In this document: piece by piece, positions 1 to 49,414 of the stretch
Layout: each line of letters opens with the position of its first letter
Position numbering within the stretch: position 1 is the first letter of the stretch
IMG/VR virus record: IMGVR_UViG_3300031867_000045
Location: 1 to 64,000 of that record
Reading direction: 5' to 3' (one strand)
DNA length: 64,000 nt
From: a virus
Program-made: the position numbers and the translations under genes
The notes under the pieces: model-generated
The model's database searches: none
What the model was told of the DNA's origin: nothing
What the model saw: only the letters and a program-made list of their open reading frames with translations

Positions 1-667
1 GTTCTTTTTCAGATTGGTTAAGAATGACATAATTATTTCTCCTTTTCTTATGTTTTTTTCAAGACGCTTCAAATTTTAGCAAATTTTCAAAGTAAATAAA
101 AACTATATTTGATTGCCATTTTCGGCAATCTATTTTTCTTTAGTAGAAGAATAGCAACTCTCGCAAGAATCACATTCCCATATTTGATTTAATCTAATAT
201 GTAATATCATTTTATTGTTTTGTTATTATTGCTGTATACCAGTAACATTTAACCGGCGCGTCTTATCACGACACTTCAATTATCGGGACAAGTGCAGGAT
301 TTTAACCTGCGTTTTCTCCTTTAAAGGGAGACGATCTAAACGCTGATCTAACTCGTCAATAATATTGCTGTCGATGTCGTATCATTCTATATGCTAAACG
401 CAAAATGCGTTAAAGCCAAAACTTCAAGACTCCATAAGGTATTAAAAGAGGCACTGTGCTACCGTTACACTACCATGCCGGAATCGAACCGAACCTGCGC
501 CTTGGAATATTTTATAACCAAAAATTGCTGTCGGAGTCTTATCAAATATTAAATTATCAAGACACATTGTTTGCGACCCTATCGGGTTTGGCGGACTTGA
601 ACCGCCTAAATATAACAGCCAAAAGTAATATTATTATCCATGCGTAAATTTGCTGTATGTGTCTTAT

Positions 668-1213
668 TTATTTACTGTAAATAAATTTTTCAAAATACTT
701 CGGTGGAACATATTTAGTCAAATATACTCCATTTTCTGATTTGAAAAATTTAATACCGTTTTTGTACATTAGCCTTGAATTAATGACAATTACCACGGGA
801 TTTCCGTGCCGCCTTCCTACATTAAATGCCGTCTTTTCATCGGAAGATAAATGAACATATAAACGGCTTTGCGGTTTGATACCTTGCTTTGAAATTGAAT
901 CATAAAATTTAGTGCAGGTTCCATGATACAATATAGAGGGCGGTTCAACCTCTTTCAATTCAACATCTACATTGATCGAATGACCTTGATTTGCCCTAAT
1001 CTTTGTTTTATCAGAATTAAATGAATATCTTTGTTTACTGTCCGACTTGACAATTTCTTCAAGTATAGACATATCTATACGATATTTCCTATTAATTCCC
1101 GCTATCAGTTGTTTTACGTCAGCCCAGCCGTGAGAGTCGAGTGTGATCCCTGCTTCTTCTGGCTTATGCCTCAGAATTAAACTGATATATTTACTTAAAT
1201 TAGTGTAAGACAT
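668..1213 (-). CDS. kptA: RNA 2'-phosphotransferase (Tpt1/KptA family)
   Basis: 181 aa, alignable along its whole length to E. coli KptA: FLSxxLRHKPE, GWAD, RANQGHS, LYHGT, RLYVHLS, ARxHGxPVV motifs all present. Confidence 0.8.
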   Translation of the reverse strand: MSYTNLSKYISLILRHKPEEAGITLDSHGWADVKQLIAGINRKYRIDMSILEEIVKSDSKQRYSFNSDKTKIRANQGHSINVDVELKEVEPPSILYHGTCTKFYDSISKQGIKPQSRLYVHLSSDEKTAFNVGRRHGNPVVIVINSRLMYKNGIKFFKSENGVYLTKYVPPKYFEKFIYSK

Positions 1214-1235
1214 ATCTATCCACCTTTGAACTAAT

Positions 1236-1310
1236 TGGTGCGCGTAGTGGGAGTCGAACCCACCTAAACACGATTAAAAGTCGTGTGCATAGCCGCTTTG
1301 CTACACGCGC
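1236..1310 (-). tRNA. tRNA-Lys (anticodon TTT)
   Basis: 75-nt cloverleaf on minus strand; anticodon stem cacga/tcgtg, loop cTTTTaa; T-arm gtggg-ttcgact-cccac; CCA encoded. Confidence 0.75.
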
Positions 1311-1546
1311 ATAAATCGATATATACGAATAGCAAATCCGCGTTGACCCACATATATCAGATGGGATTAAGTTCTTTTTGTTTTAATATGCCATAAATAT
1401 CGTTTGTTCTGGTAAAACGGTGTAGAACTTTTGTAGAATAACACCAAATAACCCACCAATCATTTAAGAATCGTTTGGTCGCGACAATACCGCCGGATTA
1501 ACATAGGCGTTCGACTATTTGTATGGCTACTACGCATAGCTGCGTT

Positions 1547-1620
1547 TGGAGGGAGGTGCAAGATTTGAACTTGCCCGGACAGTGCCACAAACTGACGTGC
1601 TACCGCTACACTAACCACCC
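1547..1620 (-). tRNA. tRNA-His (anticodon GTG); position -1 is U, so no G-1 is encoded
   Basis: 74 nt; D-stem gtgt/gcac; anticodon loop ttGTGgc with G37; T-arm gcaag-ttcaaat-cttgc; acceptor gggtggt/acctccc; CCA encoded; base 5' of position 1 is U. Confidence 0.65.
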
Positions 1621-1689
1621 ATATACAAAGGACAAAATGATAAACAAATTGCCCTCAATATCCATTATTCTTTATGGGGCTTCTAATTC

Positions 1690-2013
1690 TTAAATGGATT
1701 CACTTTGTTTTGTCTCATAATCCTTACGATATACACATTCTGCAATTACTTCCATATCGCCACAAATCACCATTTGAAGAACTATAATGTCTTTATCTGG
1801 ATCATCTACATAACGAGTGCGACAAAATCTATCATCAAAATCTGTTTTTGTCTTTTGAGCCTTATTTCCACCCTCATGGAGTAATTCATTAGCTCGTTTA
1901 CTGTTGAGGTTAAATCTCTCAAACCAACTTTTAGAATGATTTTTGAGGATGGCACCTGTCACAGCATTGATCTTGATGCTCTGGCTACTCGAACTTGAAT
2001 AACTGTTGAACAT
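1690..2013 (-). CDS. hypothetical protein
   Basis: 107-aa ORF between tRNA-His and a membrane protein gene; no recognisable motif. Confidence 0.4.
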   Translation of the reverse strand: MFNSYSSSSSQSIKINAVTGAILKNHSKSWFERFNLNSKRANELLHEGGNKAQKTKTDFDDRFCRTRYVDDPDKDIIVLQMVICGDMEVIAECVYRKDYETKQSESI

Positions 2014-2015
2014 TA

Positions 2016-2426
2016 CTATGAAATCAATCCTTTAACAACACCATAGAATTGAACTTCCGGAATAAAACACCATTTCAATAATGAGGTTAAATTTATAGCA
2101 ACCAATACGATGCAGGTGATAAATAATACGCCTATTCCGCAAGCCAAAATTGTCGTTACAAGTATAACATCTTCATCATCTTCGTCCGAATCATTGTCCC
2201 ATTTTTTATACTTTTTCTTTAATTTAAAAGATAAGAAAATACCAACGATAATGCCAATGATACCAATACCAAGCCAAATAGAGTTATTTGTAATTGAGTA
2301 AGCACGATATCTCTCCATAATATCTTGGATATACGGAACGATATTCTCAGCACTCCAATTGATTGCAATATTAAATTTTTCGGCAAGATAATTCAATACT
2401 TCTATGATCTGTTCAGAAACTTCCAT
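2016..2426 (-). CDS. hypothetical membrane protein
   Basis: 136 aa with two hydrophobic helices (IVGIFLSF..., ILACGIGVLFITCIVLVAI). Confidence 0.45.
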   Translation of the reverse strand: MEVSEQIIEVLNYLAEKFNIAINWSAENIVPYIQDIMERYRAYSITNNSIWLGIGIIGIIVGIFLSFKLKKKYKKWDNDSDEDDEDVILVTTILACGIGVLFITCIVLVAINLTSLLKWCFIPEVQFYGVVKGLIS

Positions 2427-2437
2427 TACTATCTCCT

Positions 2438-3211
2438 TTACTCACCAACAAAAATTAAATCATCAATATATTTCCGACCTTCGCCCTTGAAAACGGGAAT
2501 TTCATCATCAATCACCCACGAACTTCTGCCGGTAGTCTGATCGACTTTGCGAATACAACAACTGCCACGCTTATATTTTGTCGGATAACTATTCCAGTCA
2601 ATTCCCTTTTCATTGAGCAACATCTTGATGATCTCGCTCGTATTTTTACCGTGCATTTGCTTATCGGAAAAGTTTGCATGACCGACCATTTGAATCGAAT
2701 TTCTGATCGCGTCCTGCTGCCGCCAATAAATATTATTGGCTACTTCCTCTTTCGGAATGTTAAATACACGAGCATCAAACATAGCGCCCTTTGTTTCTGC
2801 TATTCCATGTGCGCAATCCCAGCCGATAACCCAACCGCGTGAGAACGCTTTATTAAAAGCTAACGTCGCCATGCTTGCCGCTACGCTTGCACATTTTTGA
2901 ATGTTGTAATCAAACCACGCGGTGGTATTAAGTTCTTTGTAGTCGATCAAAACTAATGTGATCTCGTCCGACTGAGTATAACCAAGAACGCAACCTTGAA
3001 TATTCTCACATAGATATCGCATAGTGTCTTGCATAGCCGCCGAAAGAACAGTATCAAATGGTCTTTGGAATCCGCGAGTGAAAGTATGAAATGCCTTACC
3101 GTCGATTCTGATAATGACCGGCGTTCTCGTAGTTAAATAATTCCGAGAAACATATTCATATTTTTTCATTCTCTTATCGAAGTCGCTGTATTTGCTCATA
3201 ACGTATTTCAA
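2438..3211 (-). CDS. Thg1-like tRNA-His guanylyltransferase
   Basis: 257 aa with Thg1 signature blocks: TPVIIRIDGKAFHTFTRGF, GYTQSDEITLVL, plus the downstream acidic/aromatic regions typical of Thg1/TLP. Confidence 0.7.
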   Translation of the reverse strand: MKYVMSKYSDFDKRMKKYEYVSRNYLTTRTPVIIRIDGKAFHTFTRGFQRPFDTVLSAAMQDTMRYLCENIQGCVLGYTQSDEITLVLIDYKELNTTAWFDYNIQKCASVAASMATLAFNKAFSRGWVIGWDCAHGIAETKGAMFDARVFNIPKEEVANNIYWRQQDAIRNSIQMVGHANFSDKQMHGKNTSEIIKMLLNEKGIDWNSYPTKYKRGSCCIRKVDQTTGRSSWVIDDEIPVFKGEGRKYIDDLIFVGE

Positions 3212-3399
3212 TCTCCGTTGTAATGTTTATTGAATAGTTCTTCCGCCCGTTTCATATCTTCATCAAATTGTTGTTTGGTTTTGTAAAAAGGGCAATTTCC
3301 ACGAGTTTCGCATAACTTTTCGCGTAGAATAACACATTTTTCGCGAAATTCGTTTCCTCCTGGATTTGCGAAACAATCGTAATATTTCTTATCCGTCAT
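3208..3399 (-). CDS. small Cys-rich protein, translationally coupled upstream of thg1
   Basis: 63 aa with CxxxxxxxxC...CxxxGNC pattern; its stop overlaps the thg1 start (ATGA). Confidence 0.35.
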   Translation of the reverse strand: MTDKKYYDCFANPGGNEFREKCVILREKLCETRGNCPFYKTKQQFDEDMKRAEELFNKHYNGD

Positions 3400-3422
3400 A
3401 TGTATTTTCCTTTACTTGTTCA

Positions 3423-3497
3423 TGGCAGGGTGACAAAGACTCGAACTCTGACTTTCGGTTTTGGAGACCGACGTTCTACCAGTTAAACTACCACCCT
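3423..3497 (-). tRNA. tRNA-Trp (anticodon CCA)
   Basis: 75 nt; anticodon stem tcggt/accga, loop ctCCAaa; T-loop ttcgagt; CCA encoded. Confidence 0.7.
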
Positions 3498-3675
3498 GTA
3501 GTTGGGCGTTTTTGAGTTGTCGCCCGCAACTGTTTAGGTTAAAACAATATTGTAATTATCATGTTCGATGATTCCTCGCTGACCTATATCAGCAATTACT
3601 ACATCTTCGTTATCCGTTACGGTAAGAGGTAAAACATGATAATAAAACTATTCAGTTCAATGAGTTATGAACCGA

Positions 3676-3752
3676 TGGTGACTGCGGAGGGAATCGAACC
3701 CTCACTCTCCACCTTGAAGGGGTGGCGACTTATACCGTTCGTCTACGCAGCC
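3676..3752 (-). tRNA. tRNA-Glu (anticodon TTC), with an unusual C33
   Basis: 77 nt; anticodon stem ccacc/ggtgg, loop ccTTCaa; T-arm gaggg-ttcgatt-ccctc; CCA encoded. Confidence 0.5.
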
Positions 3753-3946
3753 ACATATGTCCTCGTCTTTCCGAGGTGCCACTTATTATTGGATTCCAAC
3801 CCCCAACGTTAATAAGAAACGCGGATGGTTTTTCTGGAATTAGAGGACATAACCATCAACCTCTTAACATTCTCTGCATACGGATTTGCACCGTTTCTCC
3901 ATCTTTTCTTCGATGGCGTTTTACCTTATAAACTATATAACAGAGA

Positions 3947-4022
3947 TGGTAGCTCTGGCGGGAGTCGAACCCAGCGTCACACGATTGAGAGCCGCGTATC
4001 TTAACCGCTTGACTACAGAGCC
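3947..4022 (-). tRNA. tRNA, anticodon tentatively CTC (Glu)
   Basis: 76 nt; D-arm gtca...agcggtta; anticodon stem cgcgg/tcgtg (two G-U pairs), loop ctCTCaa; T-loop ttcgact; ACCA encoded. Confidence 0.4.
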
Positions 4023-4239
4023 ATATAGATTATCCAACAACCGCCGTTAATTAGTGGCGACCCGATTTTTACGTTTATCGGAAAACGCTTTTTTGATCGG
4101 CAATTTATTAATCGCATAAGCCTTATAGCGATAATCTCTGTTGTTGGCTTTTGCCGTCTTTCCAGCTGTCGTCGATGGTTTCATTCCGAATCCAAGAATA
4201 AAACCAAGAGAAGAAATTTAAAATGAACTTAGCGGTTCA

Positions 4240-4692
4240 TGGTGGAGCTGGTGGGTGTCGAACCCACGTCCAAAATTCATACTCAAATTAACTATTTTTA
4301 CGCAATAGACTAATTTTCACTGAATCCGTATTAGTCAAACGCTGGGTTCATTCAAATAGGTCGCCAGTTACCTTTGGGAATGTAAAGGTTTATACTTTAC
4401 AATCGTCCACCACTTACTTTTTAGGAAAGCAAGAAAACCATCGCATGCGGCACCACTTGTTTTTAAGGCTCAAACAAGAAACCATCATTCAATATTCGTC
4501 CGACAAATTAACCGAATGACAGGTGTTTACCGGAATCTGGATCAAGCCGCAGTTCTCTTAGAGAGAGCAGCGACAAGAGCCGGATGAAATACAACAGTAG
4601 TATTGTCGTTTATTTTTGTTTTGCGCCGTAAGGTGGATCGCCAACCTGCGAAGTTAATTCTTTCAAAACCCTGTCGAATCCAATTCAGCCCC
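4240..4692 (-). ncRNA. ssrA: tmRNA (ssrA-like transfer-messenger RNA)
   Basis: 5' end GGGGCTGAATTGGATTCGACAG and 3' end GGACGTGGGTTCGACACCCACCAGCTCCACCA match the tmRNA tRNA-like domain (E. coli GGGGCUGAUUCUGGAUUCGACGGG and GGACGGGGGUUCAAAUCCCCCCGGCUCCACCA). An internal frame ends ...NDNTTVVFHPALVAALSKRTAA-TGA, which looks like a tag peptide. Confidence 0.65.
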
Positions 4693-4838
4693 ATATTATA
4701 GAAACTTGTTACCGACATTTGCGGAAAGAAAGTTGTTGGCAAGCGCACATTTTACTAAAACTTGCCGATTTGACGATGTGCTTTAATTTAGTTAATGGTA
4801 TATATCGATGCCAATGGGCGTACCGCCAAGAATGGCGG

Positions 4839-4933
4839 TGGCGGAGCGGGTGGGACTCGAACCCACACACCGAGATCGCTCGGCTACTTTCTGTGTAGCA
4901 AACAGATACCTTACCAATTAGGTTTACCGCTCC
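4839..4933 (-). tRNA. tRNA-Ser (anticodon GCT), class II with long variable arm
   Basis: 95 nt; anticodon stem tctgt/acaga, loop ttGCTac; long variable arm; T-arm gtggg-ttcgagt-cccac; CCA encoded. Confidence 0.7.
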
Positions 4934-5550
4934 ATTTCTATCGGTTTTAGACTCCATTTATATCCAAAAGCTGTTTTACTCAAACCTCTGGCACAATCAC
5001 TAATATGACCTGGTTTTTTACCAATAAATCTTGCAGCATCAGAATATGATTCAAATGTATGTAATAAGTTGCCGTTAAGATCATATTGATAAATAATCAT
5101 ATGATTTTCTAAATTACTATAATCTTTATTATTAATTGCGTAGTCAATAATATTTTCTGCCGTAAAGTCATCCACACAAAGAGGGATTGAAGCATTTACT
5201 TTTCTTCTACTAAATGCCAATGTCCTTGTAGAACCATTGCAAAATTCAATCGGTAAAAGATAACATTGATTATTGTAATATGTTCCAATCATATCAATTT
5301 CATTTTTCGTGTATTCATGTTTTACATTTTCTTTGCCGGAAGTTGTAATTGAATATGCTTTAATTTTGATTCCCGTTTCAACTTCTACGCAACTTTTTAT
5401 TTGAACTCTTAATAATAAGTTATTAACATCAAGTATAAAATCGTATTTGCAATCTTCTCCAATAGGAACACTCACATTATATCCAAGAGAAGTTAGATAT
5501 GCCTCACACAATAATTCTGTTGCTATCCCTTTTGCTTTACCATTAAACAA
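4924..5550 (-). CDS. homing-endonuclease-like protein (PD-(D/E)XK-like N-domain plus C-terminal NUMOD/AP2-like DNA-binding repeat)
   Basis: 208 aa. N-terminal motif ELLCEAYLTSLGY...DxxxDFIL..RVQIKS resembles a restriction-endonuclease-like core. C-terminal IYQYDLNGNLLHTFESYSDAARFIG..GxISDCARGLSKTAFGYKW is a typical homing-endonuclease DNA-binding module. The stop lies in the 10 nt overlap with the 5' acceptor strand of tRNA-Ser. Confidence 0.5.
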   Translation of the reverse strand: MFNGKAKGIATELLCEAYLTSLGYNVSVPIGEDCKYDFILDVNNLLLRVQIKSCVEVETGIKIKAYSITTSGKENVKHEYTKNEIDMIGTYYNNQCYLLPIEFCNGSTRTLAFSRRKVNASIPLCVDDFTAENIIDYAINNKDYSNLENHMIIYQYDLNGNLLHTFESYSDAARFIGKKPGHISDCARGLSKTAFGYKWSLKPIEMER

Positions 5551-5989
5551 ATTATTCGTTCACCTATTCGCCTATTCAATTTATGGAACTTTGCACTCCG
5601 CAAATATTTAATTTATCACGGAGTGCTTACCGCTCCATATATCCCGCGACTTCCGCCAAAACTATTATGTATCAAATGGTTGCCTTTTGCGAGCCGCGAG
5701 GAATATAGTTTGTTACCTTAGCTGTTATCTCTTTGAATGTTGCAATCAATCTCAGAAGTAGGTTGCTATCCTAATCGTTTATCATCAATTCCGTAGCCAA
5801 TTCGGAAAGATGGATAATCGAAGCCGTGAATCCCGACTCAACATATTGTTCATTTCGCTAAAATGTCACAAAACACGCTGCTTTAGTTGAAACAGTACCC
5901 CATTCTTTGCGGTAAAGAATATGAAAACCCCAATTTCCATAAAGTCTATCGGATAACCAAACTTTGCGGCTAAAGGCAGTTCGACCTTT

Positions 5990-6065
5990 TGGCTGGGTCA
6001 CTCGGAATCGAACCGAGAGCGGTGGGGTCAAAGCCCACTATGTTGACCGGTTACACCACAACCCA
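5990..6065 (-). tRNA. tRNA-Gln (anticodon TTG)
   Basis: 76 nt; anticodon stem gtggg/cccac, loop ctTTGac; T-arm ctcgg-ttcgatt-ccgag; CCA encoded. Confidence 0.6.
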
Positions 6066-6225
6066 TCGTGTGATCGAGCCACAGGACTCACACCTGCGGG
6101 AATGAAGGTTAGGGTTGACTGCGCACATCTCACCTAACAGCATTTATTATTAATCTCGTTCTTTTACTTTACTTCATTACTTCATAATCCGTGCTTTTAA
6201 GAGATTTTCTTTTTGGTCAAGATGT

Positions 6226-6296
6226 TGTGGGAGTCGAACCACACCCTTCCGCCCTTACGCGGGCAGCGTGCTATCCGCTACACTATCACTCTAATC
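6226..6296 (-). tRNA. atypical tRNA-like element (possible pseudogene), anticodon unresolved
   Basis: Canonical D-arm (tagtgtagcggatagcac) and T-loop (ggttcgactccc) are present, but I cannot fold a 7-nt anticodon loop or a matching acceptor stem. Confidence 0.3.
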
Positions 6297-6387
6297 TCTG
6301 CCACCCATCAACAAAATTGTACGGTTTCATTAATGGTTGTACGTTGTGGCACATTTCATATGGCTTTATACTCACTACTCGATCAAA

Positions 6388-6461
6388 TGGAGCGAATAAA
6401 GGGATTTGAACCCTCACAATCAGAATGGAAATCTGATGTGCTACCGTTACACCATATCCGC
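6388..6461 (-). tRNA. tRNA-Gly (anticodon TCC)
   Basis: 74 nt; anticodon stem tcaga/tctga, loop ttTCCat; T-loop ttcaaat; CCA encoded; acceptor gcggata/tattcgc. Confidence 0.7.
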
Positions 6462-6524
6462 AGATTTGTGGGAGGGAAGCGAGGTGTGAAACCCTCCCAC
6501 GAGGTAATCTATAGTTACAAATTA

Positions 6525-8174
6525 TTAGGTGTTATCTGTATTTTCCGGCAAGGTGTCCTTTTTCTGAACGCCATCGGCAGGTACTACCTGAGTAGTAGAT
6601 AGCAGACCCTTTACAGGTTCGGCGATGCTACCCACCAATCCACGAAGTTCATCATTGATCGGCTTGCCGTTAAGGGCTTCATTCTGAACATTCAGAGTTT
6701 TCATCAGCGCAGGAATACTGGATAAGGTATCGACAAGAACGTTGCCGGAACCACTGCCCTGAGAACTTCCGCCGAAGTTGATAAACTCAGCCTTGCTACC
6801 AACTGAACCCATAAGTTCCGCGGCTTTGGTTGCAATCTGCACTTTACCCTCTGTTTCGATCTTCAACTTCTCGATCTCGAAGTTTACTTTCTCGTTAGAC
6901 GCTCTCGCTTCTGCAAGTGCGCGTTCACCTTCGGCTTGTGCCATAAGTTTCTGCTTTTCTACCTCAGCTTCCGCAAGACCTTTCTGCTTGATGACTTCCG
7001 CATCGGCAAGACCTTGCTGTTTTGCAACCTCAGCTTGTGCAAGACCTTTCTGCTTGGTAACGTCAGCTTCGGCATTACCTTTCTGCTTGATGACTTCCGC
7101 AGAAGCATTACCCTCTGTCTTAACCTTTTCCGCTTCTGCTTGTGCTGCGATCTTGATGGCATCCGCGTGGTTTCGTGATACCTGCACCTCTGCCTCTGCA
7201 CTGATAGTCTTTACATTCGCTTCCGCTTCGGCTTCGATGCGCTTCTTCTTCTTTTCTGATTCTGCTCTTGTGGAGATAACTTCCTGCTCCTTGATTGCTG
7301 CGAGATTTGCCTGTTCCTGCTTGACAACCTCAACACGACCCTTTTGCTGTTCTACCTCCTGCGCTCGAATGGTTCTCTGCAACTGACCGGCAACTTCGGC
7401 ATCGGCGTCTGCCTTATCAGTTTCAACCTTGAACGCAGCCATTTTCAGTTTATTATCTCTTTCTTTCTCAGCGATAGCCAACTCGGATTCCAATTCGGTC
7501 TGAGAAGCTGTACGCTCAGATTCAGCGTTTTGAGTACGGATAGCCTGATCTACCTTTGCTTTCTTGCTTTCGGCTTCACGGCGCTTATCCTGCATATCAA
7601 GTTCGGCAATGTTATCATAATAACCATTGTTGTCGTTGATGTCTTGGATGTTAAGGCTTACAAGTTCCATACCCATGTTGAGCATTTCATCCTGAATAAT
7701 ATCCTTAACCTTATTAGCAAATACCGCCTTTTCAGATAGTACACTTTCGGGGGTCATTGATGCTACTACATCACGAACACCACCCATAAGTGTCATTCTG
7801 GTGTCGCTGATAATCGCATCCTTTCCTCTTTCCTTAAAGGAAATGATTGCTTTCAGCAACGTTTCCGGATTTGAAGTATCGGGGCGAATCTGCGCCGTCC
7901 AGTCAATAGTAATCGGTACTGATGTTGCCGTCATAATCTCGTCACCATTTGCCGTTACCGTTAGCATTGACAAATCAAAATAATCATACTTGCGAATAAT
8001 CGGCATTACGAACGCACCGCCCGAAACATGAATTTGCGGTTTCTTGCCGCCCGTTACGATCAGTGCCTTGTCTACGCTTGCGACCTTATACATTGATTTT
8101 CCGATCAGGAAGATAGCCACAAGGATAACCAACGCAATTCCGACAGGAATGAGGATTGATAAATATTGTTCCAT
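6525..8174 (-). CDS. SPFH/band-7 (flotillin/YqiK-like) membrane protein with a long Ala/Glu/Lys-rich repeat tract
   Basis: 549 aa with an N-terminal TM helix and a band-7 core. It contains an 11-aa tandem repeat (KQKGLAEAEVx, about 6 copies, also visible as ~33-bp DNA repeats at 6950-7110) and a long coiled-coil. Confidence 0.65.
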   Translation of the reverse strand: MEQYLSILIPVGIALVILVAIFLIGKSMYKVASVDKALIVTGGKKPQIHVSGGAFVMPIIRKYDYFDLSMLTVTANGDEIMTATSVPITIDWTAQIRPDTSNPETLLKAIISFKERGKDAIISDTRMTLMGGVRDVVASMTPESVLSEKAVFANKVKDIIQDEMLNMGMELVSLNIQDINDNNGYYDNIAELDMQDKRREAESKKAKVDQAIRTQNAESERTASQTELESELAIAEKERDNKLKMAAFKVETDKADADAEVAGQLQRTIRAQEVEQQKGRVEVVKQEQANLAAIKEQEVISTRAESEKKKKRIEAEAEANVKTISAEAEVQVSRNHADAIKIAAQAEAEKVKTEGNASAEVIKQKGNAEADVTKQKGLAQAEVAKQQGLADAEVIKQKGLAEAEVEKQKLMAQAEGERALAEARASNEKVNFEIEKLKIETEGKVQIATKAAELMGSVGSKAEFINFGGSSQGSGSGNVLVDTLSSIPALMKTLNVQNEALNGKPINDELRGLVGSIAEPVKGLLSTTQVVPADGVQKKDTLPENTDNT

Positions 8175-8190
8175 TAAATTCTCCTTTTAT

Positions 8191-8312
8191 GCTTTTCGAG
8201 ATATTTACTGAATATCCCGATATTTTAACCGCATTTCCAGCGGCTCTTGACTACATTTAATATTGTAGCAAATCACCATTCAGTTGTCAAGTGTTTTCGA
8301 GTAATTTCTTAA
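8191..8312 (-). promoter_or_regulatory. promoter cassette: conserved motif, TTGACA-17 bp-TACAAT, hairpin, second motif copy, RBS (drives the SPFH gene)
   Basis: On the minus strand: AAGAAATTACTCGAAAACAC-TTGACA-17-TACAAT, then ccgctggaaatgcgg hairpin, then AAATATCTCGAAAAGCA followed by AAGGAG and ATG. Confidence 0.7.
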
Positions 8313-8320
8313 ATATTTTT

Positions 8321-9061
8321 TTAGAATGTATACCCGTCCATTAATCTCATTTTGAATTTATTTTTCTGATGGAGTGCATCAATCTTGTTCTTTACTGCCC
8401 CATCTTCGCAAATGCCTGTCCGAATATACCGATCAAGCGTTTCGTATGTAAAACCCAGGTTTTCCTCGTCAGTCTTTCCGCACAAACCATCTGATGGCTC
8501 TTTATCCATCAAATAGTCCGATAATCCGAGAGCATACCCAATGTCAATGACTTCACTTTTTGTAAACGGGGCAAGCGGCGACAAATCACCAACAGAATCT
8601 CCGTATCTCGTTGAATATCCGATATAGTCCTCAGATAAATTGCAAGTATTGACAACTCTACCGTTACTGCTCTGTGAAACAGCGTATAATGCAGCCATGC
8701 GGATTCTCGCAGGGAGATTGGTAGTTGTCTGACCGGAAATATTAAGAGTAGGCTCTTTTTCCATTCCGTCTAAAATTCCATCTACGGAATTGCCGATATT
8801 GATGGTAAAACTCTTAATTCTAAGAGTATTCACAAGCGTTTCAGCATATTTAATATCGTCCTGCTCGTGGTCTGGAAGTAAAACGCCGATGACGCGGTTT
8901 TCTCCCAAAGCCTTTACGCACAACGCGGCAACCACAGAGCTATCAATTCCGCCGGAAATTCCGACAATGGCTTTTCCAAAATTGCTATTCTTTCTGAACC
9001 AATCCTTAATCCATTCAGCACACTTTTCAGCATGATAATTTCCAAATCCAAATCTATTCAT
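8321..9061 (-). CDS. nadE: NH3-dependent NAD+ synthetase
   Basis: 246 aa; SGGIDS PP-loop motif and overall NadE-like sequence (GISGGIDSSVVAAL...). Confidence 0.75.
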   Translation of the reverse strand: MNRFGFGNYHAEKCAEWIKDWFRKNSNFGKAIVGISGGIDSSVVAALCVKALGENRVIGVLLPDHEQDDIKYAETLVNTLRIKSFTINIGNSVDGILDGMEKEPTLNISGQTTTNLPARIRMAALYAVSQSSNGRVVNTCNLSEDYIGYSTRYGDSVGDLSPLAPFTKSEVIDIGYALGLSDYLMDKEPSDGLCGKTDEENLGFTYETLDRYIRTGICEDGAVKNKIDALHQKNKFKMRLMDGYTF

Positions 9062-10530
9062 TAGAAATCACCGCCGTGCAAAGTTTTTCTGATTTCTTTC
9101 AGACTGGTTTCTTTCAGCATTTCACCATCACGGAAAATAGGCTTTAACATATTGCAAGGATCATTACTTGCTTCTTCCCAAGTCTTTTGATCTGTATAAG
9201 CAATCCCGCCATAATAATCCTCATAAACAAGACAACAACCCTTTTGAGAAGTCTTGAATCCGCCCTCTTTCGGGTCTTTGAAAATGGGAGTAGGCTTTCC
9301 GTCAATCTCACAATATGTCGCCTTAATACAAGAACTGAAAGTATCACGAGTAAACGGTTTTAGAATCCCATCTTCTTCAATGCACTGGAATGAGAACGAA
9401 CCGACACCGAGAGATACATTACAAGCCGCAAATCCGTTTTCTTTGAGAATTTCATAAATCTTCTCGCAACGCTGAACGGTAATTGAATCACCGTACAGAG
9501 CTTTCACACGAGGATCGAGGACTTTATATCCCTTGCTATTAATATAACCGCCGAACTGATCCCATAACTTGAATACCGTCTTTGTTACGACTTCCACGCA
9601 ATCGCCGGAATCTCCGCGCATAAGCATACAACCATTATGGTTCATAATTTCCTTTTTGAGTTTCGGAAGTACGTTATCAATTACATTCCAGTAATCATAA
9701 GAATCCAAAACGCAAGAAAATGATGTATTCGGGTAAATCTCCGTCAACAGTCTGCGGAGCAAAGTAATTTCATCACCGTCAACCGCAAAATTAGAACACA
9801 TTACAGAATGTTCGGTACTCGGAGCGCCAAATCCAACAGGTTCATTTTTGCAATCACAATTATAATTCTTTTCCAAATACGGAATTGCGGGAACCGTTGC
9901 AGTATTCAAGAATGAAAGCAACCAACCCGCAGCCGCCTTCGTTGCAGACTGTAAACATTCCTCACCGCGAAAATCAAAATCTCCCAACGCTCTTGCTCTC
10001 GGCATATCGTCGTCACAGGTTTCAGCATAATACTTGTTCACGATTTCACGATAAGTTGCGCCGACGGTGGCAGCCAACATGGGGTGCCACATTTCAGCCG
10101 AGATCAGCGATTCAAGCGACTGAGGAAGCCATGCAAAATCGGGATGGGTATTTGTGATTCCGAACATCGGAACGTGCATAGGCACTTTCGTTCCTTCGGG
10201 CAACGCCACAATTTCAATGGGTAAATATCCGAGATTATGCAGTTTCTTGATTTTGTTGATATTATATGTATCTTTTCCAAGAGTGGCGTCCATGATTCTT
10301 TGATATTCAACCAAAATCAGGTCGAGGGGCTTTTCAAAAAATTCTCTGTTGAAGTAATCAATCAGATATTCCTTAATAAATCCCTGCAATCCAAAGAATA
10401 CAACTTCATTCCAGCGCTTTACTCTGCTCATTCTCGGAGTAAAATAAGATACCGATTTTGTGATCTTTTCCGGCAACATTTCAGCGTGTACCGCCTTATA
10501 GTAGTCGATCAATAACATCGGATTCGTCAT
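9061..10530 (-). CDS. nadV: nicotinamide phosphoribosyltransferase (NadV/NAMPT)
   Basis: 489 aa; NAMPT-like blocks (DSYDYWNVI, LMRGDSGD, GVGSFSFQ...TRDTF) and the right length. Confidence 0.75.
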   Translation of the reverse strand: MTNPMLLIDYYKAVHAEMLPEKITKSVSYFTPRMSRVKRWNEVVFFGLQGFIKEYLIDYFNREFFEKPLDLILVEYQRIMDATLGKDTYNINKIKKLHNLGYLPIEIVALPEGTKVPMHVPMFGITNTHPDFAWLPQSLESLISAEMWHPMLAATVGATYREIVNKYYAETCDDDMPRARALGDFDFRGEECLQSATKAAAGWLLSFLNTATVPAIPYLEKNYNCDCKNEPVGFGAPSTEHSVMCSNFAVDGDEITLLRRLLTEIYPNTSFSCVLDSYDYWNVIDNVLPKLKKEIMNHNGCMLMRGDSGDCVEVVTKTVFKLWDQFGGYINSKGYKVLDPRVKALYGDSITVQRCEKIYEILKENGFAACNVSLGVGSFSFQCIEEDGILKPFTRDTFSSCIKATYCEIDGKPTPIFKDPKEGGFKTSQKGCCLVYEDYYGGIAYTDQKTWEEASNDPCNMLKPIFRDGEMLKETSLKEIRKTLHGGDF

Positions 10531-11393
10531 AGATTAAACACCTCGATTTTAGATGGCATTAAGTCAATATCTTTCGCATACTTCTGCGTACTCTTGACAA
10601 AAATGCTATCTGTAGTATATAGTTTCTCGATTAAATCTCCGTGTAACAATTCACCACGAAAAACGGTAAATTCACAATGAGTTACAAATAGATATATCTT
10701 ATCCGCGCCGAGTTCTTTTAACTTCTTCGCAGAATGTAAGAATGTTCCGCCTTTACTGCAAATATCATCAATGATTAAAACTATTTTGTTTTTAATCAAA
10801 TTTGTATCTCCGCAAACATCAAGCCCAAGAATATTTCCAGTTTCCCAATCTCGCCGTTTGATACCAAAAGCGTATGGTCGATTGATCTTGCCGGAATACC
10901 GTTTCATGGCACCTTCATCGGGAAAGAATATCGTTGGATTTGTTATGTAATTATCCTTGCAAACATTCTTAATTGCCTGTTCGATATAGGGAGTAGGTTC
11001 CAAAACGGTCAAATTATCGAACAACGCTTCACTCACAGAAGAATGAGGGTCTAAGACAACCACATTCAAGAATTTCAGCGCATTGATAAATTCCGCAAAA
11101 TATTTCAAAGTGAAAACATCCGATTTTCCCTTTACCCTATCCATTCTGGCGTTCGGAATATACGGCAAGAATAGCTCAACATCATAACCCAATCTTTGCA
11201 GGTGTTTTGTCAGAAATAAGATTGCTGCCATTTCACCGTCATTCTCGTAATGCCATGAAATAGTCACGGATTCTTGAATAGGCTCGACAGACTTCAACTC
11301 GGGTTTCAAGTGCAAAGTTCCATCGGGAAAATGATCGAGGACAACTTCGTTTCCATCAATTTTAATCATTCTGTTACCTCGTCGATCTGGCAA
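10527..11393 (-). CDS. prs: ribose-phosphate pyrophosphokinase (PRPP synthetase)
   Basis: 288 aa; PRPP-binding loop IVLIIDDICSKGGTF and PRPP synthetase N-domain. Confidence 0.7.
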   Translation of the reverse strand: MPDRRGNRMIKIDGNEVVLDHFPDGTLHLKPELKSVEPIQESVTISWHYENDGEMAAILFLTKHLQRLGYDVELFLPYIPNARMDRVKGKSDVFTLKYFAEFINALKFLNVVVLDPHSSVSEALFDNLTVLEPTPYIEQAIKNVCKDNYITNPTIFFPDEGAMKRYSGKINRPYAFGIKRRDWETGNILGLDVCGDTNLIKNKIVLIIDDICSKGGTFLHSAKKLKELGADKIYLFVTHCEFTVFRGELLHGDLIEKLYTTDSIFVKSTQKYAKDIDLMPSKIEVFNL

Positions 11394-11929
11394 GAGTGCA
11401 TGACCATCTTAGCAGCGTTATGTAATTCGGGAGTCACACCCGCACAACAAGAGAAGTCACAAGCGATTTGGATTTCCGGCGCGGCTGTCTTGATAACCAG
11501 TGCGTTAGTCACTACACAAATATCGGTACACAATCCAACAAGTTCAACGTAATCGAATCCGCCCTGAACAACAGCCTGAGCCAATGCGAAAGAGCCGAAA
11601 GACTCCTTCAAGAAAACTCTTTTATCATCGTTGTAAGTGAATTTTTCGTTCTTCTCGGCAAGACGATCTCTGAAAGCCTTTTCAATGGTTGGATTCAACT
11701 GCCAACCCTCGGTATGTAAGATACAGTGTTTCACGGGCAAGTGTTTGCCCTCATTAGAATCGAGGTATGAGTCCTCAAAATGTGTGTCATATGTAGCCGC
11801 GATCTCACCGTCGAATGTTTTGATTTTTTCTGCAACCTTATCAACGATTGCCATAGCTTCGGGAGTTCCGAGAGAGCCGTCAATAAAATCGTTTTGACAG
11901 TCAACCACGACAAGTAAACGTTTTTCCAT
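11366..11929 (-). CDS. pncA: isochorismatase-family nicotinamidase (PncA-like)
   Basis: 187 aa; VVVDCQNDF N-terminal motif and catalytic-cysteine block GLCTDICV typical of PncA. Confidence 0.65.
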   Translation of the reverse strand: MEKRLLVVVDCQNDFIDGSLGTPEAMAIVDKVAEKIKTFDGEIAATYDTHFEDSYLDSNEGKHLPVKHCILHTEGWQLNPTIEKAFRDRLAEKNEKFTYNDDKRVFLKESFGSFALAQAVVQGGFDYVELVGLCTDICVVTNALVIKTAAPEIQIACDFSCCAGVTPELHNAAKMVMHSCQIDEVTE

Positions 11930-12099
11930 TTAATTCTCCTTAAAAACTCTAAAATAGCGCCGATCTGTTGATTTTATGCGATAATCTTCTTCATCTTGTG
12001 CCTCCTTGATTTTGACATACTATATATAGTGGTTATAATATTTTATACCACAATATCTTGTGCTAAAAAGTGAATAAAACAGCGATTTGATTCACTTTC

Positions 12100-12513
12100 T
12101 TAAAATCCGTTAAATCCATTCGGATTTCCGTTCATAATGTTGTCGTATTGGTTAATCAAATTCTGTAACTCAGGATCGCTTTTTGCCAACTCACGGTACA
12201 AAGAAAGATTACGATTTTCCTTAACATGCTTATCCATAGCCGTAACGAGCTTGTTAATTGTAGCAGTGTTTTCCTTTCTTCTGTTCCACGCAGAAAAATC
12301 CACCTTACAGATAATATCTTTTGTTGCGGCGACGCCAAAGTAATTGTTGGGTGAAATAATGTTCACCACTTTAGCTACAACAAAATCATTTGCGCTATCT
12401 GTAAGAACATAATCTCCGACACGGATATTTGTATCGTACAGCCGGAAAGCGTATTCCTTAGATGTGTTGAAGCCCCTAACAAAAGTCACCTTTGCGATTA
12501 AATAATGGTTCAT
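12100..12513 (-). CDS. hypothetical protein
   Basis: 137-aa ORF preceded by the conserved UTR motif and an RBS. Confidence 0.45.
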   Translation of the reverse strand: MNHYLIAKVTFVRGFNTSKEYAFRLYDTNIRVGDYVLTDSANDFVVAKVVNIISPNNYFGVAATKDIICKVDFSAWNRRKENTATINKLVTAMDKHVKENRNLSLYRELAKSDPELQNLINQYDNIMNGNPNGFNGF

Positions 12514-12607
12514 ATTCTTTTTCCTTTCTTTTGCTTTTCGAGTTATTTCTTGATTGCCTTGAAATAAAAACCGCAGGATCGCGGTCTTATTTCAAGTTCG
12601 ATTTTGA

Positions 12608-12684
12608 TGGTGTGCCATCAGGGAATCGAACCCTACACCTACAGATTATGAGTCTGTTGCTCTAACCGAATGAGCTAATGGCAC
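12608..12684 (-). tRNA. tRNA-Met or tRNA-Ile2 (anticodon CAT)
   Basis: 77 nt; anticodon stem acaga/tctgt, loop ctCATaa; T-arm taggg-ttcgatt-cccta; CCA encoded; followed by a GATC-loop hairpin and T-run. Confidence 0.7.
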
Positions 12685-37640: not shown

Positions 37641-38970
37641 TTATTTAAACTTTTTTGATGAATTATTGCATTTTGGCGGATTGCACAAACCAACATGATA
37701 TTACTTGTATAATTTGCACAATGCCGGGATCGTGCTGCTATTACTGGATATAGTATTATATATTATACTTATTATATACCACAATATTATATTGCTATAA
37801 AAGAATATTACATACTGTAATATGATATCGGATCAATTACTATTTGTATATTTTATTATTCTATAATAGAATATTGTATAGTCCTGGATCATGCTTATTA
37901 TTCTATTGTAGAATTATAATTTTGTGGGATAAAGTACCGTTTATTGGACTTTGTTTGTATTGAGTACAATAAATTGGACTTTGTAAAGTACATTATTGCG
38001 ATGATATAACTTTAATTGTGATGATTAAATTTGATTGAATTGTGATTATTTTTGATTAAATTTGAGGGAATTTGACTGAGTTTGCTTTTAGGTGTAAAGC
38101 ATTTTACTTTACACCTCTCGAAAAATCTGAAAATCCTTTATTTCTTTTAAAGCATAATAATTTCATAGAATCCATCGGGATCATGCTACAATTCCAAAAT
38201 GTGAATAAAACATTTATTTGATGACTATATTGTAATTCTGTTTTTTGCACTATTACAGAATTAAAGCCCAAAAATTGAGCATTTATACTACTTGCCTACT
38301 TGATAGGTAGGTAGGGGGTAGGTTTACATCTCGAACATCTGTTCGAGCCGGATGCCGGTTTTAATGTGCTCCCCTCTACTCTCACCTCAAAATTTAAATC
38401 CCCCTTACCTGTTCAATTTTTGAACACTCACCGAAAATTACAGTCAACAATTAAAGGTGTTCAATAATTGGTACTTTTTCTGAAAATTAGTCGTTTATCG
38501 AAAACGCAAAAAATTTATTAAAGTGTTCAATAACTGATACTTTTTTGGTGAAATTTTCGACGTACCGAAAACTGAGTAAAAATCCCGCAATTTTTCGTTT
38601 TTATAAAAGCTCAGTTTTTGAACAAAAATATTTTAAGGTAAACGATCAAAACAATCGATCATGGTGGTTTCGAGATAAAAGTTGCGGAAAATTGATGAAA
38701 ACATTTCGGTAATTTTGCTCCGAAATTCTGGTAAGCAACCCGAAAAATCATTCCGAAAATTACCTTAAAACGAAACTGCGACCGCAACTTAATCTATTTA
38801 CTATATACTATACGTTACTTATATAATTACATTGTATATAGATTAAGTAAAGTATATAATTACTATACATAACGTATAGTAAATAATAATTACTATAAGT
38901 AATGTATAGTAATTAATATATATATAATATATATACCTATTTATATGCGATTTTTTAGATCAATTTAAAC
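37641..38970. promoter_or_regulatory. large non-coding divergent control region with several repeat families (candidate replication origin or regulatory hub)
   Basis: No ORF of 60 aa or more. Three copies of GGGATC(G/A)TGCT-type sites (about 37725, 37883, 38173). Perfect inverted repeats ggtgtaaag/ctttacacc and tcgaaca/tgttcga. Two ~32-nt direct repeats (gtgttcaataa-tg-tactttttt) at about 38456 and 38520. At least 8 CCGAAAA repeats at 38400-38760. Palindrome array B at 38760-38960. Confidence 0.5.
38760..38960. repeat. AT-rich 29-bp palindrome array, copy B
   Basis: aattactatacataacgtatagtaa and aattactataagtaatgtatagtaatta; ends tatatgcgatttttt like copy A. Confidence 0.6.
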
Positions 38971-38974
38971 TTAT

Positions 38975-39025
38975 TCAAGAAATATCTCGAAAAGACTTGA
39001 CAACCGAGGAAATATGCTCTACAAT
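38975..39025 (+). promoter_or_regulatory. rightward promoter cassette (motif, TTGACA-17 bp-TACAAT)
   Basis: TCAAGAAATATCTCGAAAAGAC-TTGACA-accgaggaaatatgctc-TACAAT, followed by aacctgcgggattgcaggtt hairpin, then GAGG RBS and ATG at 39085. Confidence 0.7.
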
Positions 39026-44162: not shown

Positions 44163-44239
44163 GCGGATATGGTGTTCAACGGTTAGCACGTTGGCTTGCC
44201 AAGTCAAAAGTACGAGTTCAAATCTCGTTATTCGCTCCA
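44163..44239 (+). tRNA. tRNA-Gly (anticodon GCC)
   Basis: 77 nt; anticodon loop ttGCCaa; T-loop ttcaaat; CCA encoded; acceptor identical to the minus-strand tRNA-Gly(TCC). Confidence 0.65.
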
Positions 44240-44311
44240 TATAAGACACACGCAGCAATTATTCAGAATAATTTTTGCGGTTAAAAAATATTCATGGTGT
44301 CTTGTTCTTAT

Positions 44312-44388
44312 TGCGGGATGGAGCAGATGGTCAGCTCGTCTGCCTCATAAGCAGAAGGTCGTGGGTTCGAGTCCCACTCCCGCAACCA
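44312..44388 (+). tRNA. tRNA-Met or tRNA-Ile2 (anticodon CAT)
   Basis: 77 nt; D-stem gagc/gctc; anticodon stem tctgc/gcaga, loop ctCATaa; T-arm gtggg-ttcgagt-cccac; U1-A72. Confidence 0.6.
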
Positions 44389-44404
44389 CTAATTTAATCA
44401 ATAT

Positions 44405-44489
44405 GGGAGAATCGTATAGCGGCAATTACGGCAGACTGTAAATCTGTTCCCGTAAGGGTTCGATGGTTCGAGTCCATCTTCTCCCACCA
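44405..44489 (+). tRNA. tRNA-Tyr (anticodon GTA), long variable arm
   Basis: 85 nt; anticodon stem gcaga/tctgt, loop ctGTAaa; long variable arm; T-arm gatgg-ttcgagt-ccatc; CCA encoded. Confidence 0.65.
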
Positions 44490-44492
44490 TAT

Positions 44493-44569
44493 GCTTGTGT
44501 AGCTTACGAGGTCGGAGCATCGGTCTGAAAAACCGAAGGATGGTGGTTCGATACCACCCTCAAGCACCA
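44493..44569 (+). tRNA. tRNA-Phe (anticodon GAA)
   Basis: 77 nt; anticodon stem tcggt/accga, loop ctGAAaa; T-arm ggtgg-ttcgata-ccacc; CCA encoded. Confidence 0.6.
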
Positions 44570-44572
44570 TAT

Positions 44573-44648
44573 GGTTCCGTAGTTCAAATGGATAAAACAC
44601 CGCCCTGTCACGGCGGAGTTATGGGTTCAATCCCCGTCGGAATCGCCA
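44573..44648 (+). tRNA. tRNA-Asp (anticodon GTC)
   Basis: 76 nt; anticodon stem ccgcc/ggcgg, loop ctGTCac; T-loop ttcaatc; CCA encoded. Confidence 0.65.
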
Positions 44649-44651
44649 AAT

Positions 44652-44726
44652 GTAGGTGTAAGTCAACGGTAGACGGCTTGCTTTGGGAGCAAGTAGCTGG
44701 GGGTTCGAGTCCTCTCACCTGCACCA
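44652..44726 (+). tRNA. tRNA-Pro (anticodon TGG)
   Basis: 75 nt; anticodon stem cttgc/gcaag, loop ttTGGga; T-loop ttcgagt; CCA encoded. Confidence 0.6.
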
Positions 44727-44776
44727 AACAGAGTTCGGCACGCCTCTGAATATGCGTACCATGCCGAGCCATATAT

Positions 44777-44852
44777 TCCCACGTAGTTCAGTTGATAGAA
44801 CTCTCGACTGTTAATCGAGTAGTCGCAAGTTTGAGTCTTGCCGTGGGAGCCA
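44777..44852 (+). tRNA. tRNA-Asn (anticodon GTT)
   Basis: 76 nt; anticodon stem ctcga/tcgag, loop ctGTTaa; CCA encoded. Confidence 0.55.
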
Positions 44853-44855
44853 AAC

Positions 44856-44930
44856 GGGGGATTAGTTTAATAGGTAAAATCCTCGCCTTGCACGCGAGGG
44901 TCAGCGGTTCGAGTCCGCTATCCTCCACCA
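44856..44930 (+). tRNA. tRNA-Ala (anticodon TGC)
   Basis: 75 nt; anticodon stem ctcgc/gcgag, loop ctTGCac; T-arm agcgg-ttcgagt-ccgct; CCA encoded. Confidence 0.65.
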
Positions 44931-45038
44931 AATACATAAACAGGACAAGGAGTAATTAACCTTTCTCGGTGCTGCTACACCGAGATTACTGTTTGTGTAT
45001 AGAATAAATAGACAAATTTTAGCAGAAAGGAGTTTATT

Positions 45039-45794: not shown

Positions 45795-45812
45795 TACCCG
45801 CAAGGGTAATAT

Positions 45813-45886
45813 GCTGAAATAGTATAATGGTAGTACCGCGGATTTGTAACCCGCTAATCTGAGTTCGACTCTCAGTTTCAGCTCCA
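45813..45886 (+). tRNA. tRNA-Thr (anticodon TGT)
   Basis: 74 nt; D-stem gtat/gtac; anticodon loop ttTGTaa; T-arm ctgag-ttcgact-ctcag; CCA encoded. Confidence 0.6.
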
Positions 45887-47554: not shown

Positions 47555-47565
47555 GGGGTAACAAT

Positions 47566-48183: not shown

Positions 48184-48204
48184 TTAATAAAAACAAGGAG
48201 AGTT

Positions 48205-49407: not shown

Positions 49408-49414
49408 TAGAGAA

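Follow-up and report, generated by a model that had tools for sequence, protein, structure and literature searches.

Does a phage that encodes a tRNA-His without the guanosine at position -1 (G-1) bring along the enzyme that supplies this nucleotide? The question is raised by a stretch of viral DNA of 64,000 nucleotides (positions 1 to 64,000 of the IMG/VR record IMGVR_UViG_3300031867_000045, hereafter the window), in which a gene for tRNA-His(GUG) and a gene for a Thg1-like protein (TLP) can be found close to each other. In the preliminary description of the window, the TLP was suggested to be the phage's own enzyme either for the addition of G-1 or for the repair of 5' ends. Of these two proposals, the second is favored here: with a probability of roughly 0.6, the TLP would be a general, template-dependent repair enzyme for tRNA 5' ends that belongs to a translation-maintenance island and has come to lie beside tRNA-His by local rearrangement. 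A dedicated supply of G-1 is not retained, as TLPs are kept together with a G-1:C73 tRNA-His or with none nearby, and as U73, the discriminator base of the window tRNA-His, is expected to template A. The two genes are the following.

2438-3211, minus strand: Thg1-like protein of the bacterial type (Pfam, 4KGK, phrog_4717)
1547-1620, minus strand: tRNA-His(GUG) (ARAGORN call, 5' end at 1620)

The window is phage DNA, with a large terminase and a portal gene at 51.1-54.6 kb, the terminase being nearest to those of Bacillota phages. With 70% identity, the TLP clade is represented on a contig from the isolate Ruminococcus sp. YE282, and it is also present in metagenome-assembled genomes of Oscillospiraceae and Clostridia, which points to Clostridia, and within them to the Ruminococcus/Oscillospiraceae lineage, as the hosts of this large phage; it is a phage of gut or rumen Clostridia. 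Among GenBank phages, no near-identical DNA relative was found, either for positions 1-12000 of the window or, by blastn, for the tRNA-His gene itself.

A Thg1-like protein of the bacterial type

The open reading frame (ORF) of the TLP comprises 257 amino acids from a TTG start and contains IRIDGKAFHTFTRGF and GYTQSDEITLVL, the blocks by which it had already been assigned to Thg1. The more likely start is an ATG at position 3199; the resulting form of 253 amino acids lines up with the N-termini of its relatives in an alignment of 12 phage TLPs and is the exact gene call on a 55-kb metagenome contig from ENA. The assignment is borne out by the Pfam family Thg1 (PF04446), which matches with 104.5 bits (cut-off 29.2, E 5e-30) over profile positions 2-130 of 130, as well as by phrog_4717 (E 4e-89) and by the structure of the bacterial enzyme BtTLP (4KGK, E 1e-58, residues 12-255). 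It also holds for the catalytic centre. The catalytic carboxylates are D29/D76/E77 in hTHG1 and D30/D75/E76 in BtTLP (PMC3701042); the latter align with D37/D82/E83 of the window TLP, and these three residues, together with the nucleotide-binding residues, are invariant across the 12 phage TLPs.

Regarding the type of enzyme, eukaryotic Thg1 chains (Candida, human and others) match the window TLP at E 6e-10 to 8e-7. The place of the eukaryotic HINNLYN motif is taken by AIRNSIQ, BtTLP likewise having a similar non-HINNLYN sequence there, and the Thg1 C-terminal domain (PF14413) reaches 17.6 bits, under its cut-off of 26.3, so that neither HINNLYN nor a recognizable C-terminal domain, the two marks of a eukaryotic-type Thg1, can be found. 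Considering an E value of 1e-58 to BtTLP vs. about 1e-7 to 1e-10 to eukaryotic Thg1, and the replacement of HINNLYN, the window enzyme is best classified as a bacterial-type TLP and not as a true tRNA-His guanylyltransferase. With BtTLP (PDB 4KGK/4KGM) it has in common a near full-length alignment, the three carboxylates, the H/S/R/N nucleotide-binding positions, the class of about 250 amino acids and a methionine at the position of eukaryotic Thg1 N161. By eye, roughly half of the aligned positions are identical, an insertion of about 10 residues follows residue 128, and the activity would be that of BtTLP; the latter is chromosomally encoded in a bacterium, whereas the window TLP is encoded by a phage within a tRNA island. 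The likeness to eukaryotic Thg1 (human THG1 3OTB, Candida 3WBZ), which adds a non-templated G-1 opposite A73, is one of fold family and catalytic carboxylates.

The presence of a TLP in a phage is not unusual, contrary to what had been stated in the preliminary description. By tblastn, TLPs can be found in 164 of 50,697 GenBank phage records, most of them annotated as tRNA-His guanylyltransferase, from phages whose hosts include Bacillus, Prevotella (Lak), Caulobacter, Mycobacterium, Erwinia, Vibrio and Fusobacterium; a two-pattern scan of IMG/VR yielded at least 428 stretches that encode TLP relatives, and the family is represented in the PHROG collection (4717). The best GenBank match to the window TLP is an unannotated 4-kb fecal fragment (62% identity), and none is near-identical. 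The gene was flagged in the genome paper of Bc431v3 in 2013, and Thg1 and KptA were listed as phage RNA-repair genes by Iyer and colleagues (2021, PMC7824862; 2022, PMC9503650). The annotated phage tRNA-His guanylyltransferases (Bacillus phages Bc431v3 and G, Fnu1, PMBT8, Caulobacter phiCbK-like phages and Lak megaphages) are members of the same family, with 30-51% identity and typically from large phages, and have already been interpreted as tRNA-modifying or repair enzymes (PMC7824862; Bc431v3 paper). An experimental test of a phage TLP was not found in the literature. What sets the window apart is that its TLP lies 0.8 kb from a tRNA-His with U both at position -1 and at the discriminator position 73 (U-1/U73), an arrangement found in no other examined locus.

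A tRNA-His gene without G-1 and C73

ARAGORN and Rfam agree on a tRNA-His(GUG) whose -1 base is U, as had been described; it lies on the minus strand, and its U73 had gone unmentioned. The Rfam tRNA model (RF00005) covers 1550-1620 with 50.3 bits (gathering score 29); therefore, 1547-1549 is the encoded CCA, the discriminator is U73 (plus-strand base a at 1550) and the -1 base is U (plus-strand base a at 1621). The acceptor stem is formed by G1-C72, G2-C71, G3-C70, a U4.U69 mismatch, G5-C68, G6-C67 and U7-A66. Of the features of a canonical bacterial tRNA-His, the GUG cloverleaf is present, while the encoded G-1 and C73 are both missing. The remaining window tRNAs obey the ordinary bacterial discriminator rules, the deviation being specific to His. 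The leader of tRNA-His is UAU, which it has in common with 9 of the 18 other window tRNAs and from which an ordinary +1 cleavage by RNase P is predicted.

Because of its cloverleaf covariation, the gene is best regarded as a functional tRNA in which both halves of the canonical G-1:C73 pair have been lost. When 11 TLP-linked orthologues are aligned, changes on both sides can be seen in 14 of the 22 cloverleaf pairs, and the observed values are reached by none of 500 shuffles. Between the window and a second contig (L003), three compensatory pairs differ in the T stem. The pair -1:73 is G:C in 7 of the 11 orthologues and unpaired in the window; a compensatory A:U pair was looked for in this alignment and not found, the pair being either G:C or absent. 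The pattern clearly points to selection on this rare U-1/U73 tRNA-His.

U.U mismatches in the acceptor stem can be found in the tRNA-His genes of the clade at 4:69 (9 of 11) and at 5:68 (8 of 11; columns 7:72 and 8:71 of alignment A1), and the window tRNA-His retains just that at 4:69 (window positions 1617/1554). Two other readings of the gene were considered and rejected. A shifted register, in which the first G would be G-1 paired with the last C, needs a 6-bp stem or a displaced T arm; moreover, 1550-1620 plus CCA is the span given by both Rfam and ARAGORN, and the alignment with the G-1:C73 orthologues fixes the register. A 5' editing of mismatched acceptor stems, of the type found in protist mitochondria, is at variance with the other window tRNAs, which are fully paired at positions 1-3, and with the place of the sole mismatches, which are found in tRNA-His at 4:69 and 5:68, beyond the edited range.

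As a control, viral contigs were scanned with a pattern for the D arm and anticodon loop of tRNA-His, blind to the TLP (loci L037-L156), which gave 117 genes in fetched chunks of 1-15 kb after two contigs of the TLP set had been dropped. The -1 base is G in 74 of them (63%), and an encoded G-1 is absent from 43 (37%), including 25 genes that have C73; seven genes are of the alpha-proteobacterial G1.U72/A73 type. The discriminator is C73 in 84 genes and U73 in two, and in one control locus (L135, 1225-1298) an encoded G-1 stands opposite U73. The absence of an encoded G-1 is common among viral tRNA-His genes, and it is U73 that is rare. Among 378 non-His tRNAs in the TLP loci, the -1 base is U in 304 and G in just three. 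The standard base of the leader at -1 is U, and the scarcity of G at this place argues that the G-1 in the tRNA-His genes of the relatives is under selection.

These counts bear on a possible, if less than likely, explanation in which the TLP has no part, namely that the tRNA-His works or is tolerated as it is. It could persist as a weakly charged 7-bp form with U73, it could retain U-1 if cleavage at -1 occurs now and then, or it could represent an escape from a host factor that recognizes G-1:C73, e.g., a tRNA-targeting nuclease. A base other than G at -1 is indeed frequent in the control, the U/U state has been kept in two lineages, with an identity of only 68% between their TLPs and with compensatory substitutions of T-stem pairs, and the change concerns tRNA-His while the other window tRNAs are ordinary. 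However, we know of no nuclease that recognizes the acceptor end of tRNA-His. In addition, a form without a positioned 5'-phosphate should be a poor substrate for histidyl-tRNA synthetase (HisRS; PMC3245924).

TLPs and tRNA-His in related loci

TLP loci with 10-kb flanks were gathered from viral contigs, metagenomes and genomes, and ARAGORN was run on every locus; the locus scans cover the best 80 loci. In the sub-clade of the window, the TLP is embedded in islands of 8-17 tRNAs. Their order is SPFH gene, tRNA-Gly, Gln, Ser, (Glu), Trp, [Tpt1], His, (Arg) and Lys, then about 3 kb of genes, then a run of Leu/Ile/Ser/Arg/Met/Pro tRNAs and, at the end, the TLP. The distance from the TLP to tRNA-His is 5.4-7.7 kb in the relatives. 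Only in the window is the TLP found between Trp and His, and only there is the distance 0.8 kb; with 817 nt from the end of the TLP ORF to the tRNA-His 5' end, and both genes on the minus strand, the spacing and shared orientation given in the preliminary description are accurate. This proximity most likely reflects a local rearrangement within the island.

In 11 distinct TLP loci, a tRNA-His can be found within 10 kb: eight have G-1/C73, one has G-1/A73 and two, the window and L003, have U-1/U73. With G-1 encoded by 9 of the 11 genes, TLP and tRNA-His do not behave as a dedicated pair. At least nine loci combine a TLP with 8-13 tRNAs and have no tRNA-His within 10 kb, and this is also true of 39 more distinct TLP loci (54-65% identity; mostly from human-gut phages of 100-190 kb), 30 of which are without any tRNA in the same range. 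In Staphylococcus phage PMBT8, whose TLP is 47% identical to that of the window, no tRNA or transfer-messenger RNA (tmRNA) gene was found in 87 of its 88 kb, and in Fusobacterium phage Fnu1 a tRNA-His with an encoded G-1 and A73 lies 17 kb from the TLP. Since TLPs are found with G-1:C73, with G-1/A73 or with no tRNA-His nearby, the TLP is kept whatever the state, or presence, of the phage tRNA-His.

The many TLP loci without a tRNA within ±10 kb, and PMBT8 in particular, could be taken to mean that the TLP acts mainly elsewhere, i.e., on the 5' end of tmRNA, on other small RNAs, on App/Gpp cap-like ends or even on nucleotide signals. BtTLP accumulates App-/Gpp-activated intermediates (PMC3061083), and a palm-domain kinship with GGDEF and Cas10 polymerases has been described (PMC2904730), both of which would fit. 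Yet the TLPs of the sub-clade sit within tRNA islands, all biochemically studied TLPs act on tRNA-like 5' ends, and host tRNAs would serve as substrates even where the phage encodes none. Such a role is very unlikely.

Possible functions of the window TLP

BtTLP is template-dependent, prefers Watson-Crick addition and efficiently repairs 5'-truncated tRNAs (PMC3061083). Its kcat/KM is 5500 M-1 s-1 for G opposite C73, 94 M-1 s-1 for A opposite U73 and 108 M-1 s-1 for G opposite A73, and it complemented a yeast thg1 deletion (PMC3061083). According to a review table, ATP is the nucleotide that archaeal and bacterial-type enzymes put opposite U73 (PMC3245924). With HINNLYN replaced and the C-terminal domain under threshold, a non-templated addition of G-1 is not expected of the window TLP; as a template-dependent enzyme of the bacterial type, it would read U73 as a template for A, not G. 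If it acts on tRNA-His, a slow formation of an A-1:U73 product is predicted, about 60-fold less efficient than the addition of G opposite C73. HisRS chiefly reads the 5'-phosphate as positioned by the -1 nucleotide, which work on E. coli HisRS identified as the major identity element (PMC3245924), so that the A-1 form could still be charged. A lineage relying on the TLP for G-1 should have retained C73, which the window lineage has lost.

The favored reading, that of a general repair enzyme, can be laid out as follows. The island would combine a tRNA array, a tmRNA, Tpt1/KptA, a block of genes for the salvage of nicotinamide adenine dinucleotide (NAD+) and a bacterial-type TLP. The TLP would activate a 5'-monophosphate RNA end with ATP or GTP, as BtTLP does, and would then add nucleotides in the 3'-5' direction with the 3' strand of the acceptor stem as Watson-Crick template, thereby rebuilding 5'-truncated tRNAs of any isotype, whether of phage or host. 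During infection, this would keep the tRNA pool usable, probably against nucleolytic damage. The +1 cut by RNase P would leave tRNA-His with a 7-bp stem and U73-CCA and, should the TLP touch it at all, the templated product would carry A-1:U73 and not G-1.

Several points weigh against this reading. To our knowledge, no phage or bacterial TLP has a demonstrated in vivo substrate, nor do we know of a source of 5'-truncated tRNAs in infection. A Pfam scan of about 40 ORFs of the window revealed no RNA ligase, polynucleotide kinase or CCA-adding enzyme, so that the window does not show a repair pathway in full; the partners could lie beyond the 64 kb. For the relatives, the statement that tRNA-His is absent covers only the ±10 kb around the TLP. 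Furthermore, the TLP and tRNA-His are probably co-transcribed, as they lie on the same strand with short gaps and no terminator-like site was seen between them. Both independent U-1/U73 lineages, the window and L003, carry a TLP, and a dependence of the tRNA on the TLP is possible.

Such a dependence would be explained if the TLP were the phage's own enzyme for the maturation of tRNA-His, adding the nucleotide at -1, either a wobble-paired G or an A templated by U73, after a +1 cut by RNase P and so yielding the 8-bp end and the 5'-phosphate position that HisRS needs. The tRNA-His has no encoded G-1, its generic U-1 leader predicts +1 cleavage, it is clearly under selection, and it must gain His identity somehow; from the G-1:C73 of the relatives, use of the canonical rule can be deduced for the host HisRS, and a TLP is encoded by both U/U lineages. 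BtTLP, for its part, adds A opposite U73 and replaces Thg1 in yeast, and the G-1 opposite U73 in the unrelated L135 indicates that U73 is compatible with a -1 nucleotide. However, the TLP predates the U/U state and has a far wider distribution, being kept by relatives with G-1:C73, by relatives without a tRNA-His in reach and by a phage without a detectable tRNA gene. C73 has been lost, although U73 with A is about 60-fold under C73 with G for BtTLP; 37% of the control tRNA-His genes are without G-1 and have no TLP in the fetched flank (these flanks being short); and the adjacency is unique to the window. A role dedicated to tRNA-His is thus rather unlikely. In its evolutionary form, this idea would mean that the lineage has shifted tRNA-His identity from an encoded G-1:C73 with a -1 cut by RNase P to a eukaryote-like route, in which a U-1 leader and a +1 cut are followed by the addition of -1 opposite U73 by the TLP, giving A-1:U73 or G-1.U73. 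This shift is a tentative proposal and a distinctly improbable one.

Organization of the island

The 19 tRNA genes that ARAGORN calls in the window form two clusters (285-12684, minus strand; 44163-45886, plus strand). In the direction of transcription, the minus strand carries the NAD+ salvage block, the SPFH gene, tRNA-Gly, tRNA-Gln, the PD-(D/E)XK-NUMOD1 gene, tRNA-Ser, the tmRNA, two tRNA-Glu, tRNA-Trp, an ORF of 63 amino acids, the TLP, two small ORFs, tRNA-His, tRNA-Lys, Tpt1/KptA and a tRNA with anticodon UUA. Besides the TLP and tRNA-His, the features are as follows.

8321-11929, minus strand: NAD+ salvage/synthesis block of four genes (NadE, NAMPT/NAPRTase-family, Prs-like phosphoribosyltransferase, isochorismatase/PncA-like)
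6525-8174, minus strand: SPFH/Band-7 (prohibitin-like) protein (PF01145), the conserved island start in relatives
3423-6461, minus strand: upstream island with tRNA-Trp, Glu(UUC), Glu(CUC), tmRNA, Ser(GCU), homing-endonuclease-like gene, Gln and Gly(UCC) (ARAGORN, Rfam, Pfam)
4924-5550, minus strand: homing-endonuclease-like gene, PD-(D/E)XK plus NUMOD1, within the first tRNA cluster
4240-4692, minus strand: tmRNA (Rfam RF00023, 90.7 bits, E 1e-34)
2016-2426, minus strand: predicted membrane protein of 136 amino acids (phrog_23747), between the TLP and tRNA-His
1690-2013, minus strand: ORF of 107 amino acids (phrog_30355), directly upstream of tRNA-His
1236-1310, minus strand: tRNA-Lys(UUU), which comes after tRNA-His as in relatives
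668-1213, minus strand: Tpt1/KptA, an NAD+-dependent RNA 2'-phosphotransferase (PF01885, 7KW8, phrog_5470)
285-357, minus strand: tRNA with anticodon UUA (Rfam 64.5 bits, well-formed)
45039-45794, plus strand: homing-endonuclease-like gene, GIY-YIG, within the second tRNA cluster

The two ORFs between the TLP and tRNA-His (136 and 107 amino acids) were sought in the related loci, and neither was found there. Homing-endonuclease-like genes sit in both tRNA clusters, which fits rearrangements of the island. The tmRNA was overlooked by ARAGORN with default settings; a relaxed run gives the same span with both tRNA-like domains, with ...DNTTVVFHPALVAALSKRTAA as the apparent natural tag. A gene of the SPFH/prohibitin family is found along with the TLP in the clade of the window and also, three genes behind the TLP (L237, 21389-22198), in Fusobacterium phage Fnu1, which is unrelated.

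Tpt1 matches PF01885 with 169.8 bits (cut-off 26, E 8e-50) and 7KW8 with E 3e-47, the LRH, IRANQGHS and VHLS motifs being identical; these motifs presumably hold the Arg-His-Arg-Arg tetrad. Among the loci examined, Tpt1 is common to the window and the L003 contig only, the same two lineages that have U-1/U73. A functional partnership of Tpt1 with the U/U tRNA-His was considered and is not claimed, as a coincidence in two related genomes is indistinguishable from shared ancestry. The NAD+ block, which is conserved in L011 and L133, could feed the NAD+-consuming Tpt1 or counter NAD+-depleting defences.

The tRNA with anticodon UUA would read the TAA stop codon; all other window tRNAs have an encoded CCA, which this one lacks. 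Of the 66 ORFs of at least 100 amino acids, 44 end in TAA, the commonest stop in the window, and, read in the standard code, the large genes seem intact. The relatives instead have a tRNA(UCA), called 'SeC', close to the SPFH gene (L001, 205; L133, 3977). Between Tpt1 and the UUA tRNA, at 360-660 on the minus strand, tRNA-like fragments can be recognized by eye as T-arm- and D-arm-like strings, e.g., GGTTCGATTCC and TAGTGTAACGGTAGCAC, which may be decayed tRNA genes; no tRNA was called at 360-660 by ARAGORN with introns allowed or by Rfam at E up to 0.1. The gene downstream of the UUA tRNA starts at about position 30 (minus strand) and runs past the left edge; on the matching ENA contig, it encodes a DUF2828/DUF7788 protein of 510 amino acids (L315, 6170-6762).

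On the plus strand, the second tRNA cluster is followed at 46112-49720 by genes for a metallo-beta-lactamase RNase of the beta-CASP/RMMBL type (RNase J/CPSF-like, phrog_36352), a ClpP-family protease, an SbcD-like metallophosphoesterase 'exonuclease' and an HU-like protein. At about 38000-39000, both GC skew and gene orientation change sign, from minus-strand genes on the left side to plus-strand genes on the right, which marks a point of divergent transcription.

Known systems and significance

With phage RNA-repair arsenals (Pnkp/Rnl1 of T4; the KptA, 2H, ligase, CCA-adding and Thg1 sets of jumbo phages), the window has Tpt1/KptA and Thg1 in common, together with tRNAs and NAD+ genes. A ligase, a polynucleotide kinase/phosphatase, a 2H enzyme and a CCA-adding enzyme of such arsenals were undetected among the about 40 ORFs scanned, and the RNA-repair set of the window is either partial or has partners outside it. 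Regarding tRNA-His, an alpha-proteobacterial clade also lacks G-1 and combines A73 and G1.U72 with an anticodon-reading HisRS; a tRNA-His without G-1 is also known from some protists. The window tRNA-His resembles this type in that the -1 guanosine is not encoded and the discriminator is not C. Unlike it, the window gene has U73 and G1-C72, and it belongs to a phage of Clostridia whose phage relatives keep G-1:C73.

The role of bacterial-type TLPs is puzzling because their hosts normally encode G-1. The TLP family in phages is already known, and the rare part of the locus is its U-1/U73 tRNA-His. The locus is a clear case of a TLP within a tRNA island, alongside Tpt1, a tmRNA and genes for NAD+ salvage, and this arrangement lends support to the idea that the translation apparatus is maintained by large phages in the course of infection. 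With about one third of the sampled viral tRNA-His genes lacking an encoded G-1, how phage tRNA-His is charged is an under-appreciated question. A tRNA-His that is under selection and has lost both G-1 and C73 is a natural test substrate for the supply of -1 by a TLP in a bacterial system. If the shift in tRNA-His identity considered above were true, it would amount to the first demonstration of a physiological substrate for any TLP of bacterial type or from a phage, and also to the first step in tRNA identity maturation to be encoded by a phage, and His decoding by the phage might become independent of, or resistant to, a host factor.

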